In this document: positions 59,492 through 63,560 of the stretch, in pieces
Layout of the letters: the number at the start of each line of letters is the position of its first letter
Position numbering within the stretch: position 1 is the stretch's first letter
From: Chitinophagaceae bacterium
GTDB lineage: Bacteria; Bacteroidota; Bacteroidia; Chitinophagales; Chitinophagaceae
Reading direction: 5' to 3'
Assembly (NCBI GenBank): GCA_046598205.1
Contig: JBKJIX010000022.1
Coordinates: forward strand, 1 to 63,560
DNA length: 63,560 bases
Notes under the pieces: generated by a model
Database searches by the model: none
What the model saw: the letters and a program-made list of their open reading frames with translations, nothing else
Told to the model about the DNA's origin: nothing
Program-made: the position numbers and the translations under genes

Positions 59492-59578
59492 GTGTTGCAA
59501 AGTAAGAGTAAACAATCTGCTTTAAAACTATAAACCAGCAACTAAAAACCAGAAACCAGCATTACCTTTGCCCCCGCT

Positions 59579-60331
59579 ATGGCAAACCCATTACCCCACG
59601 ATCATATCATTCCCTTCAAAGATTCTGAAAAAGGCAAAAAAGAACAGGTGGCCGATATGTTTAACCGGATATCTGGCAAGTATGATAAAATGAACCGGTT
59701 TCTGTCTGCCCGCACAGATATTGGCTGGCGCAAAAAAGCTATCCGCAAATTAAAAAAAGATAATCCCCGGCATATTTTAGATGTAGCCACCGGCACTGCT
59801 GATATGGCCCTGCTGGCTTATAAAATGCTGAAACCAGACCTTGTTACTGGCATTGATATATCAGAAGGAATGCTGGAATTGGGTAGAAAGAAGATTGAAA
59901 AAGAACAACTTGGGGACAAAATCCAGTTACACCTTGGCGATTCAGAAACAATAAACTTTGCTGAAAATACGTTTGATGCCGTGATGGTGGCATTTGGAGT
60001 CCGGAACTTTGAAAACCTGGAAAACGGCCTGGCAGAAATGTTTCGGGTATTAAAACCCGGTGGCCGTTTGGTAGTGCTTGAATTTTCAAAACCCCGGCTT
60101 AAAGCAGTTAAAAATTTATACAACTTGTACATGGGCATCGTGGCTCCGGAAGTAGCCCGTTGGTTTAAACAGGACAAAGAGGCTTACCAATATTTAAATA
60201 AGTCGGCCAATGCTTTTCCCGACCGCCATTTATTTACTGACATTTTAAAAAAAGTGGGATACTCCAATACGGAATTCAAACCGCTAAGCTTAGGAATATG
60301 TTGCATTTACTCCGGACAAAAGCCTGCCTGA
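59579..60331 (+). CDS. ubiE: Demethylmenaquinone methyltransferase UbiE/MenG
   Basis: YDKMN, LDVATGTAD, AFGVRNF, RVLKPGG, LEFS; TACCTTTG -7 element at 59563-59570. Confidence 0.95.
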   Translation: MANPLPHDHIIPFKDSEKGKKEQVADMFNRISGKYDKMNRFLSARTDIGWRKKAIRKLKKDNPRHILDVATGTADMALLAYKMLKPDLVTGIDISEGMLELGRKKIEKEQLGDKIQLHLGDSETINFAENTFDAVMVAFGVRNFENLENGLAEMFRVLKPGGRLVVLEFSKPRLKAVKNLYNLYMGIVAPEVARWFKQDKEAYQYLNKSANAFPDRHLFTDILKKVGYSNTEFKPLSLGICCIYSGQKPA

Positions 60332-61053
60332 AAATAATAACCGTGTTGTTGCTGTGCGGATGCCTCCTGCTTCCTCATATAACCACCGCTCAATATTACC
60401 CTTACAGCAAGGTGGAAATGAACCGCACCGATCAGGATAGCAAGCCTTATTATTTTGGTATGAGTATCGGCATCAACCTGGCTCGTTTTCAAACAGAGCT
60501 TCATCCTGTTTTTTTACAAAACGATAGTGTGTATGTGGCCGAGCCCAACAACTCAGGCGGCATCACTTTAGGGTTCCAGGCCACGGCCCGTTTATCCAAC
60601 CGTTTTCAATTACGTTTCAATCCGCAACTGATGTTTGTGGAGCGGAATATTTTTTACCGGCTCAAGTATCCTGATCTTAATGGCGATACCAGTTCGATAA
60701 AGAAAGTGGAATCAATTATAGCAGCTTTTCCTTTTCAATTAAAATTTCAGAGTGACCGCATCGGCAACTTCCGGGTTTACACATTACTCGGCTTTAAGGC
60801 CGATATAGACATGGCCAGCAATGCCCGTGCAAAAAAAGCAGAAGAGTTGGTGAAAATAGAGAAATATGATTTTGGTCCTGAGTTTGGAATCGGTTTCAAC
60901 TTTTACTTTCCCAGTTTTATTTTTTCTCCTGAAATAAAAATCAGTAATGGCCTCCGCAACATACATGCAAGAGATGCCAACCTCAAATACTCCAATGTGT
61001 TTGATAAAATACAATCGAGGATGATTGTGTTTACGATTCATCTGGAGGGATAA
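60298..61053 (+). CDS. porT: PorT/SprT-like T9SS outer membrane beta-barrel protein
   Basis: Signal peptide, KFQSDRIGNFR, FIFSPEIKIS, terminal HLEG; follows ubiE as usual in Bacteroidota. Confidence 0.8.
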   Translation: MLHLLRTKACLKIITVLLLCGCLLLPHITTAQYYPYSKVEMNRTDQDSKPYYFGMSIGINLARFQTELHPVFLQNDSVYVAEPNNSGGITLGFQATARLSNRFQLRFNPQLMFVERNIFYRLKYPDLNGDTSSIKKVESIIAAFPFQLKFQSDRIGNFRVYTLLGFKADIDMASNARAKKAEELVKIEKYDFGPEFGIGFNFYFPSFIFSPEIKISNGLRNIHARDANLKYSNVFDKIQSRMIVFTIHLEG

Positions 61054-61363
61054 AGACAAAAACTTCACCCCCCTTTTTTTTAAATACAATTTGGGGTTCT
61101 CAGCAATAGTAACTCCGGTCAGCAGCAGTCCGCCGCCCGCCTCCAATCTTTTTTGCCCACCACACCAGCTATAAAAAAAAAGGATTTCCGGCTAAGCGGC
61201 GCAGCCCATCAGCTATAGAACAAATCCAGGCAATAGCTGCACATCAAAGCCCCCTGAATTACAGGTAGCATTTTCCATTCTTATTTCTACAAATAAAACA
61301 TAATTGGCCAATTCAGCATCGTAGCCGGATAGGAAGTTGTAAATTCATTTACAAACAAAATAA

Positions 61364-62605
61364 ATGAAGCAGGTAATTCTAAAGCCATTACAGCACCGGG
61401 AACAGGAATGTATCGGTATTTATTTTGAAAACTCATCTGTTCTTAATGGTGCTATTCGTAAGAATGCCGGAGCCAGGTGGAGCCGTACCAATAAATGCTG
61501 GTATGTGCCATTGAGTAAAGAGAACTATAACAAGCTCTTCTTTGCATTAAAAGGGAAGGCAGAAATAGAACAGGCTGCGCTGCTTCGCTATCTTTCAGAA
61601 AAGAAAACTCAAACATCCTCTGTAACTGCATCCAGCAAAGAGTTCTCTGTTAGCAAAATACCCGTCACTCAAAAAAAAAATGCTACGCCCTGGACAACGC
61701 AACGGGTAGCTGTATTTAAAAAAGAACAAATAAGCGCCGCCAATGCACATATCATACCTGCTATGCATCAGCATTTGAAATTGAAAGCCTACAGCCCCTC
61801 GACCATAAAAACGTATCTGAATGAGATGTCGCAGCTACTTAATTTATTAAAAGGCATTCCGGCCGATCAACTTACGGTAGCAGATTTGAAAAGATACCTG
61901 GTATATTGTTTAGAAAAATTAAACCTGAAAGAAAACACTTTGCATAGCCGGATCAATGCTTTAAAGTTTTATTATGAGCAGGTACTGGGTAGGGAAAAGT
62001 TTTTTTGGGAAATACCAAGACCGAAAAAACAATTGCTATTACCAAAATTGCTGAACGAAACAGAACTAACAAAGTTGTTCAATGCCCTTGTAAACAAAAA
62101 GCATAAAGCGATGCTTTTTACTGTTTACAGTTCAGGATTAAGAGTAAGCGAAATTGTAAATCTTAAATTAGAGGATATTGATAGCCAGCGGATGCAAATA
62201 CATATCAGAAGAGCAAAAGGTAAAAAGGACAGGTATGTAAACCTAAGCCCCGTATTGCTTGATATTTTGAGAAGTTATATCAAAGCTGCAAAGCCCCGGC
62301 CTAAAGAATACCTTTTTGAATCGGAGCAAACCGGCAATGCCTACCCCACCCGGACTGTACAGCAGGTATTTACCAATGCCAAACAAAAAGCAGGAATACT
62401 AAAAGAAGTTGGAATACATAGTTTACGGCACAGTTTTGCCACCCATTTATTAGACAAGGGAACTGATATACGTTATATAAAAGATTTGCTGGGGCATTTC
62501 GATATTAGAACAACAGAAAGATACCTGCATGTCAGCAAAAAACAATTGGTTAATATTATAAGTCCCTTCGACGATTTATGGAAAAAGGAAACAATCGACT
62601 GGTGA
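61364..62605 (+). CDS. Tyrosine recombinase (integron-integrase-like, without IntI insertion)
   Basis: SGLRVSE (R), KGKKDR (K), HSLRHSFATHLL (HxxR), LLGH, TTERY (Y); SAM-like YSPSTIKTY domain; ~130-aa N-terminal extension. Confidence 0.93.
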   Translation: MKQVILKPLQHREQECIGIYFENSSVLNGAIRKNAGARWSRTNKCWYVPLSKENYNKLFFALKGKAEIEQAALLRYLSEKKTQTSSVTASSKEFSVSKIPVTQKKNATPWTTQRVAVFKKEQISAANAHIIPAMHQHLKLKAYSPSTIKTYLNEMSQLLNLLKGIPADQLTVADLKRYLVYCLEKLNLKENTLHSRINALKFYYEQVLGREKFFWEIPRPKKQLLLPKLLNETELTKLFNALVNKKHKAMLFTVYSSGLRVSEIVNLKLEDIDSQRMQIHIRRAKGKKDRYVNLSPVLLDILRSYIKAAKPRPKEYLFESEQTGNAYPTRTVQQVFTNAKQKAGILKEVGIHSLRHSFATHLLDKGTDIRYIKDLLGHFDIRTTERYLHVSKKQLVNIISPFDDLWKKETIDW

Positions 62606-62696
62606 ATAGGTAAAAGGCCTTTGGTGGATTGTCCTAATAACAATACAAAATGTATAACACTAATTCATTGATTTTCAGACAGCATTTTTTTTGAAG

Positions 62697-62735
62697 GGTG
62701 CGTCTAATAGCATAAATTTACGTGTTATCGTCAAT
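62697..62735 (+). other. Putative attI-like recombination site (crossover G|TTATCG at 62724/62725)
   Basis: GTTATCG 119 bp after the integrase stop; exact complement of the attC-like left core. Confidence 0.65.
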
Positions 62736-63266
62736 CGTTTCAGCTATTTTTCCGCTCTGCGAAATTTTCTTACTGTAATTAAAAAACATTTTCATCTACA
62801 ACTCTGGTCGTAGTTAGAATATGTTCTCAACTGTGGTAACACTGATGAGCTTTTGTCCCGGCTTTCCGTAACACGGATGAATGCAAGTTGCTTCAAATCC
62901 GAACTGCGTAGTCAGAATAAAACTTCAACATTTGTAACACAGATGAGCTGTAGTTCCAGGCTTTCCGTAACACGGATGGCAAATGGTCGTCTAACGATTC
63001 AATAATAGTCTGCTGATTTATTTTTTGTTGCCAATAGATAAAAGGCATTTGATGGGACGACCGTATTACGAAAGCCGATAACAAGGGGTTTTCTGCTATG
63101 CTGGCTGACGAATATATCCTGATCATCCTGTCCCCTACTCAACTGTAGTCCGGGCTGACCGAATAAATCTCAACAGTATATCTTAACTTCAACATCAGTA
63201 ATTCTATTGGGCTTCAGTTATGGGCTTGACGTTTTTCAAATTCCAGCACAGCAGAAAGCCCTAACG
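62725..63266 (+). mobile_element. Putative gene cassette 1 (ORF-less, 542 bp)
   Basis: Bounded by two GTT cores and ending in an attC-like hairpin. Confidence 0.65.
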
Positions 63267-63272
63267 TTGTAC
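63076..63272 (+). other. attC-like site, 197 bp
   Basis: CGATAAC core, arm GGGTTTTCTGCTATGCTGG, long loop, arm CCAGCACAGCAGAAAGCCC, core GTTGTAC; arms 17/19 complementary. Confidence 0.75.
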
Positions 63273-63560
63273 GTCACCCTAAACGACATTCTGCAAACAT
63301 TTAAGCATCCAAGAATTTGCCGACACGACCCAACGCACCAAGTTAGGCACATTTGCAAGGCACACAAAGCCAACACACAAAAGCCAACCTTGCAAAGAGC
63401 TAAAAATGCCAACGCACAGCCCACCCACCCCGGCTGACGACTATCTATCAACATTTGTTCGACACTTTAGCAATATATCTTTACTCAACACCAAGCCCAC
63501 CCACCACCCAACTGGCGGACACTTAACAATTTGGGATAGACAAGTGCAGCAAACAGGGTT
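63267..63560 (+). mobile_element. Start of putative cassette 2 (C/A-rich non-coding leader; runs off window)
   Basis: Begins at G|TTGTAC; strongly C/A-skewed with internal hairpin. Confidence 0.5.

Follow-up and report, generated by a model that had tools for sequence, protein, structure and literature searches.

The window, i.e. the whole stretch of 63,560 nucleotides that was analysed, is the entire contig C25 of a 3.5-Mb assembly that is 99.7% complete. The features discussed here are collected in Table 1. A tyrosine recombinase gene is followed, behind its 3' end and in the same orientation, by a docking site, a first cassette and the beginning of a second one; the distance from the recombinase stop to the first GTT (62724) is 118 nt. 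On the sequence comparisons below, there is strong support for reading the locus as the head of an integron-like array of cassettes, consisting of a XerA-like recombinase gene, a docking site and hairpin-bounded cassettes with complementary ends. The cassettes were likely inserted as circles in the manner of integrons, because the two ends of each cassette match each other.

Table 1. Coordinates of the features of the cassette platform, in positions of the window.
Feature	Position	Strand	Basis
Tyrosine recombinase gene, 413 aa, XerA-like, without the IntI insertion	61364..62605	+	Pfam, alignments
Additional alpha/beta domain at the N terminus (aa 1-78) with a disordered linker behind it	61364..61597	+	predicted model, pLDDT >90
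Predicted cassette promoter: TTG (62691-62693), 19 nt, TAAATTTA (62713-62720)	62691..62720	+	motif likeness
attI-like docking site, ending in GTT (62724-62726)	62700..62726	+	profile score 30.1
Cassette 1, 542 nt including the hairpin site	62725..63266	+	end complementarity, ORF lists, homolog
Direct repeat inside cassette 1 (two copies, spaced 98 nt, 80.6% over 72 nt)	62809..62978	+	
Left core (R''-like), extended outward by 4 bp; partner of 62724-62738	63068..63082	+	complementarity
attC-like site body: 19-bp stem (63086-63104 with 63243-63261), no bulge, 138-nt loop region	63086..63261	+	pairing
Right core (R'-like), putatively donated by cassette 2	63266..63280	+	2/7 to the left core of its own site
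Start of cassette 2: conserved repeated leader, cut by the contig end	63267..63560	+	leader homologs

Recombinase, docking site and surroundings

The recombinase matches the Pfam families PF00589 (E 1.3e-36) and PF13495, and its catalytic residues R260, H352, R355, H378 and Y387 are invariant in 60 relatives. The nearest relatives of the recombinase come from records nearly all labelled Chitinophagaceae or Bacteroidota. Against the integron integrase model TIGR02249 it scores 177.9, below the cut-off of 265, and is aligned in two stretches. The score of 209.6 for the XerA model NF040815 does not reach the cut-off of 220, and the XerC and XerD models give 179.7 (cut-off 335) and 167.3 (cut-off 330). 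When aligned to VchIntIA, the protein again falls into two stretches, with the offset dropping from 125 to 85 and about 40 residues missing at the IntI insertion; the alignment to XerA is a single stretch with a colinear catalytic domain. XerA is also the best fold match of the predicted structure (pLDDT 83.5). The N-terminal domain has a weak match to DUF5710, found in 32 of the 60 family members, and has no named match in the ESM Atlas or among PDB sequences. Its modelled fold resembles the N-terminal parts of XPB and T4 UvsW with Z values of 6.2-6.4 among fold matches ranked 45-48, a middling likeness that we treat as a lead only. We take this type of fold to be tied to mismatch or branch recognition, and a literature search for such a link found nothing.

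The recombinase gene was present in 22 of the 41 genomes searched, in many contexts and tied to a cassette array, and this patchy presence argues against a housekeeping role. Every match on plasmids was less than 60% identical. In the assembly itself, tblastn returned just two further recombinase matches, both distant. A separate recombinase gene on contig C49 resembles XerD by sequence (a putative label), and on contig C208 (5036-7067) a second, distant recombinase (34% identity) adjoins ORFs that, judged by eye, resemble an IS91-type transposase.

For comparison a family set of 90 non-redundant loci was used, i.e. 80 plus 12 (the window among the 12) minus 2 duplicates. When one of these, L043, is compared with 59562-62603 of the window, the DNA is 94% identical over the ubiE-like and porT-like genes until the porT stop (61054), and the identity over the recombinase is only 73%. 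The insertion spot of the window is common to 6 of 67 loci, and the recombinases found there are 63-79% identical. Both comparisons suggest that platforms may replace one another at a single locus. Upstream of the recombinase lies an intergenic, hairpin-rich stretch (61090-61260) that faintly resembles the site family and has a weak, sub-threshold match to Flavo-1 of Rfam (61141-61190; E 0.25, half of the gathering score); this stretch is missing in L043, L044, L051 and L082, where the gap is short. The idea that the recombinase gene is itself a cassette was rejected, as the scores of the site-like stretch (about 61090-61260) were -0.1 and 9.7, and an upstream left arm was found in only 2 of 85 loci and a right arm in 0 of 85. 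One locus in a record labelled Yersinia (L064) carries a Chitinophagaceae-type recombinase at 64% identity, which is probably a matter of binning or labelling.

A docking-site profile was built from 18 first junctions with the window left out, and a threshold of at least 8 was applied. The window came top of 81 loci, and the control maximum was 6.0. Of the 81 loci, which are spread over about 52 different upstream contexts, 41 have an attI-like motif behind the recombinase (15 of these 41 being profile seeds), mostly 100-150 nt past the stop. The docking sites are variably occupied, with 33 different first-cassette starts behind 39 sites. For the five non-seed sites that have a next site, the core matches were 7, 7, 5, 5 and 1 of 7.

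The docking site also holds a predicted promoter. In 29 of the 41 attI-like sites, TAnnTTTG with at most one mismatch lies 11 to 4 bases before the GTT, and in 23 of 41 a TTG lies 19-21 nt upstream of this -7-box-like motif, both counts being without a shuffled control. The promoter call follows the spacing rule between the TTG and the box in this phylum. The -7 box of Bacteroidota is located at -12 to -5 (PMC9723704). With the box placed there, transcription is predicted to start at about 62725, the first base of cassette 1.

Metagenome contigs from Logan bear on the same boundary. A 958-nt contig is identical to 62008-62726 and departs from the window exactly after the GTT, its other 239 letters being unaligned to the window, and a second contig likewise stops at 62726. 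The runs with these contigs come from a single study, possibly of the source population. The body of cassette 1 is uncovered in three runs (X1-X3), a missing cover that proves nothing; in a fourth (X4), 174 nt of cassette 1 are covered with zero differences. Runs X3 and X4 contained only a small share of the query words.

Anatomy of the sites and matching of cassette ends

The inner hairpin of the window is real, with 17 of its 19 stem positions paired; the mismatches are T·G at 63089/63258 and A·C at 63098/63249. Both recur in the family, where 37 of 49 sites have T·G at stem position 4 and 48 of 49 have A·C at position 13. The spacers of the window are 5 and 6 nt, a minority spacing (9 of 54 sites; 5 and 7 nt in 37 of 54), and the length from AAC to GTT is 185-192 nt in 48 of 54 sites. 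Extrahelical bases of the attC kind were not found: a pairing with a single bulge was better in just 4 of 64 sites, each time at a distal position. GTT opens the L box in 55 of 71 sites, and counted from it the mismatched A is position 11. The same position of the R box is A in 40 of 40 cognate junctions; the base facing it is C in 30 of them, A in 6, G in 3 and T in 1. The two half-sites thus share the form GTT-N7-A, the final A being unpaired and in most cases facing C. In 39 of the 40 junctions position 11 stays unpaired while the blocks on either side pair, as would be expected if selection acts on a folded structure.

The right cores follow the GTTRRRY consensus in 3 of 77 cases, those of the window being GTTATCG and GTTGTAC. 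The base before the GTT is C in 77 of 77 hairpin sites and T in 14 of 18 seed docking sites, and this difference places the crossover within the GTT. The first-pass annotation had put it at G|TT; the comparison brackets it inside the triplet and does not fix the exact base. At the gathering score, Rfam has no match over the site of the window or over the sites in six arrays, and the hairpin site had zero matches in plasmid and phage collections.

At cassette 1, the left core GCCGATAAC (63074-63082) had been proposed as the partner of the start of its own unit, GTTATCGTC (62724-62732), rather than of GTTGTACGT (63266-63274), which now closes the hairpin. Coordinates and letters are correct, including the 8/9 match with the first 7 perfect, and so is the assignment: the left core pairs with 62724 at 9 of 11 informative positions and with the closing GTT at 63266 at 4 of 11. 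Past the GTT there are 5 pairs out of 7, one unpaired A and a 4-bp outer stem (62735-62738 with 63068-63071). Among the 1,158 GTTs on the forward strand of the window, 62724 is the sole one to reach 9/11, and the next best reaches 7. In non-cognate family comparisons a value of at least 9/11 occurred in 1.1%. The 7-mer alone (5/7) is weak, being equalled or beaten by 16 of 76 foreign cassette starts, and the junction of the window is among the weaker ones.

The statement that circularising 62725-63266 would rebuild a fully paired site has to be softened. At 9/11 the rebuilt site would be well paired, but T62731·C63075, A62733·A63073 and A62734·A63072 stay unpaired, and an asymmetric central loop and the two stem mismatches are added to these. 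Nevertheless, a more stable fold is predicted for the rebuilt junction (-32.2 kcal/mol on the bottom strand) than for the chromosomal site (-24.8 kcal/mol), and the family shows the same difference in 28 of 29 cases. Taken as a whole, the chromosomal site folds no better than shuffles (z -1.67 and -0.86).

No ORF of at least 60 aa was found on the forward strand within cassette 1, and its direct repeat has no viral match. One clear homolog (L121, 1500-1795) was found among 61 and among 401 genomes searched. It is 70% identical over the first 155 nt and has the same two boundaries, starting at a GTT behind the hairpin of another gene, not at a docking site, and ending at a matching left core. 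Core position 4 is T-A in the homolog and G-C in the window, which is a compensatory change, and the pair broken at T62731·C63075 is intact in the homolog. The cassette is gene-less in both genomes and keeps a repeated 20-24-nt motif together with both boundaries; as to its role, one can only guess at a small RNA or a binding array.

The rule of cognate ends was examined over the family with a site detector that ignored the outer 7-mers. It called 65 sites on the array strand and 8 on the opposite strand in 244 kb downstream of the recombinases, compared with 4 and 4 in 574 kb upstream. By locus, downstream sites were found in 25 of the 34 loci with at least 1.5 kb of downstream sequence, and upstream sites in 0 of 67. 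After one false call (L116, 7221) was removed, 29 of 36 adjacent pairs in 14 loci had a left core matching the preceding right core at 6 or more of 7 positions, with a mean of 6.0 vs 3.8 for the right core of the same site. The maximum in 100,000 permutations was 11, and 22 when the permutation was kept within loci. In six of the seven misses, matching overlooked sites lay between the two members. With arm profiles that were themselves built from these loci, 40 of 44 pairs (18 loci) were cognate, with 33 different 7-mers, and 4 of 44 were without a match. These counts bear out the earlier proposal that every right core comes from the cassette that follows, and the comparison supports a cognate-end rule that is general across related Chitinophagaceae arrays; related loci and related cassettes are not independent. 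Cassettes are mostly single-gene, and 41 of 67 ORFs have no Pfam match.

The genome has further hairpin sites, partly degenerate, at a great distance from the recombinase, on contigs C43, C50, C52, C139, C201 and C204. Contig C75 (184, reverse strand) ends in a cassette start without a preceding hairpin, like an attG insertion. A left core on C201 (1740, forward strand) matches this start at 6/7, so the two contigs may be joined.

Cassette 2 gives a further view of what moves together. Its leader has a paralog on contig C52 at 84% and is 78-89% identical in other loci, and its 19-base start recurs in 72 other loci. The next site was found in 16 of these 72 (15 non-duplicate), and 14 of the 15 end in CGTACAAC (AACGTAC-AAC), the kind of core that the first-pass annotation had predicted for the end of cassette 2; in the remaining 56 it was unfound, in many but not all cases from missing sequence. 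The units range from 220 to 7,534 nt with a common leader and trailer and so share ancestry. Clustering of their bodies was set aside, being confounded by the common trailer. The following arm is shared by 11 of the 14 units, and the starts are preceded by 63 distinct sequences (21 strong hairpin arms, 17 weaker ones, 7 attI-like motifs and 18 others). With the following arm shared and the preceding arms variable, the hairpin body travels with the upstream cassette, as in integrons. A strong left core complementing the start of cassette 2 was found nowhere in the genome, a 20-base pattern from the contig end was unmatched in metagenome contigs, and the Logan pieces listed end at 63514, short of the contig end. 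The leader is high-copy in soil metagenome contigs, and a similar unit on C52 has ORFs that, judged by eye, resemble a nuclease and a helicase.

Proposed mechanism and competing explanations

We propose that the adjacent recombinase inserts circular cassettes at the GTT of the docking site by recombining the folded bottom strand of the cassette hairpin with the double-stranded attI-like site, a reading to which we give a probability of about 0.78. The intermediate would be a circular cassette with its ends joined at the GTT. The folded bottom strand of its hairpin would be recombined with the double-stranded docking site; a crossover at G|TT and replicative resolution are both assumed by analogy with IntI. 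The bottom strand is the probable substrate because top-strand use would invert the cassettes, while 47 of 53 cassettes carry their longer ORF on the array strand; in 27 of 29 cases, moreover, the bottom stem is the more stable of the two. The unpaired A's of the A·C mismatches may take the place of the extrahelical bases recognised by the extra helix of IntI, and the first cassette would be transcribed from the predicted promoter inside the docking site. The work is assigned to the adjacent enzyme because the linkage holds across about 52 upstream contexts.

That linkage also speaks against a reading in which the circular cassettes are real and are moved in trans by the host XerC/D or another recombinase, with the adjacent gene as a bystander or helper. 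XerC/D are the other tyrosine recombinases known to act on single-stranded substrates (PMC5027507), and the sites on the six contigs away from the recombinase would suit such a mover. We nevertheless consider it unlikely, since the docking motif follows the recombinase stop in 41 of 81 loci, arrays are found downstream of the recombinase only, the catalytic residues are invariant, and the only two other recombinase matches in the 99.7% complete assembly are distant.

It is also improbable that the platform once worked and is now inactive or decaying, which would make the end match a fossil and leave cassette 1 unable to excise. Cassette 1 is gene-less and has a broken core pair that is intact in its homolog, its site has the minority 5/6 spacing, and scattered, partly degenerate sites exist elsewhere in the genome. 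On the other side, the recombinase ORF is intact with all catalytic residues, the docking site scores best of all, and a near-identical contig leaves the window exactly after the GTT.

Very improbable, in our view, is that the units, as small elements bounded by inverted repeats at their termini (GTT...AAC), insert as double-stranded DNA beside stationary hairpin repeats. The unit ends do formally make up a 15-bp imperfect inverted repeat, and 18 of the 63 sequences before cassette-2-like starts have neither a hairpin arm nor an attI-like motif. However, the hairpin body moves with the upstream unit, the 7-mers differ among cassettes (33 kinds) yet match their own partner, one position is unpaired between paired blocks in 39 of 40 junctions, and the cassettes hold a single orientation. 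Chance as the source of the end match is refuted by the family permutation, the profile and the GTT scan: 5/7 matches of the 7-mer are frequent in the family background, but 62724 is the unique best of all GTTs and falls both on the docking site, which was scored independently, and on the boundary seen in the homolog.

Comparison with known systems

With integrons the platform shares a tyrosine recombinase with its catalytic residues, one docking site next to it, an oriented array, hairpin sites with GTT/AAC triplets, two boxes, a central spacer and a 5-nt left spacer, a cognate left core with the right core supplied by the next cassette, and mostly single-gene cassettes of no recognised function. 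The differences are as definite. An insertion with helix I2 defines IntI (PMC2095811; bioRxiv 2022.02.06.479319); unlike VchIntIA (2A3V), from integrons of the sedentary chromosomal type, the recombinase is without it and has an extra N-terminal domain. An attC site has 57-141 bp and two or three extrahelical bases (PMC5027507), whereas the sites here are mostly of 185-192 nt and have fixed A·C mismatches in place of such bases, GTTRRRY is rare, the right spacer is mostly 7 nt and the end match extends over about 15 bp. Unlike in usual integrons, the array lies behind the 3' end of the recombinase, a reversed arrangement that is mentioned for Spirochaetota IntIs. With the IntI insertion, the extrahelical bases and the core consensus all lacking, we do not class the system as an integron despite its integron-like working.

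XerA, XerC and XerD (NF040815; 4A8E, 5HXY) are the best sequence and fold matches of the recombinase, and XerC/D are able to recombine single-stranded substrates (PMC5027507). Unlike them, the recombinase is below the family cut-offs, patchy in distribution and tied to a cassette array. By description it fits the "integron-like" tyrosine recombinases without IntI helices of Smyshlyaev et al. (10.1101/542381), in whose account these closest IntI relatives without the insertion are linked to IS91 and IS3 elements, not to cassette arrays. For Bacteroidetes proper, a single complete integron (in Salinibacter) is named with IntegronFinder 2.0 (PMC9024848). A 2024 preprint counts Bacteroidota among the clades earlier found without integrons (10.1101/2024.07.02.601686). 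The accessible parts of PMC8618304, PMC2426708, PMC13616975 and that preprint do not describe the system, and our literature search, with most subscription journals outside its reach, found no published description of such a platform.

The complete and compact platform of recombinase, docking site and cassette thus combines the logic of integrons with neither the extra helix of IntI nor the bulged bases of attC, the two features by which integrons are defined, and the parts needed for reconstitution all lie within 2 kb of the window. If it is active, a simpler enzyme would suffice for single-strand cassette recombination, and a large cassette pool would be invisible to current tools.

The closest biological parallel concerns Riemerella anatipestifer, also of Bacteroidota and of a different order, in which aph(3')-IVb, lnu(H) and blaRATA are captured by a homology-independent, site-specific process (PMC13148043). 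The captured unit there is a gene with 27-bp 5' and 140-bp 3' flanks, the latter folding like attC; the software of the authors detected no integron nearby, and in the accessible text the recombinase is unnamed and the mechanism left open (PMC13148043). The likeness of the 140-bp flank to our sites is by description and not by sequence. Tentatively, and with the odds against it, one may go further and suppose a second integron chemistry in Bacteroidota, in which a XerA-type enzyme without helix I2 would read folded sites by two symmetric A·C mismatches, perhaps via the XPB/UvsW-like domain, and would drop cassettes onto the transcription start of the attI promoter; this would explain both the Riemerella capture and the near-blindness of integron finders in the phylum. 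If the platform is active, homology-free gene capture in Bacteroidota (PMC13148043) gains a named candidate.
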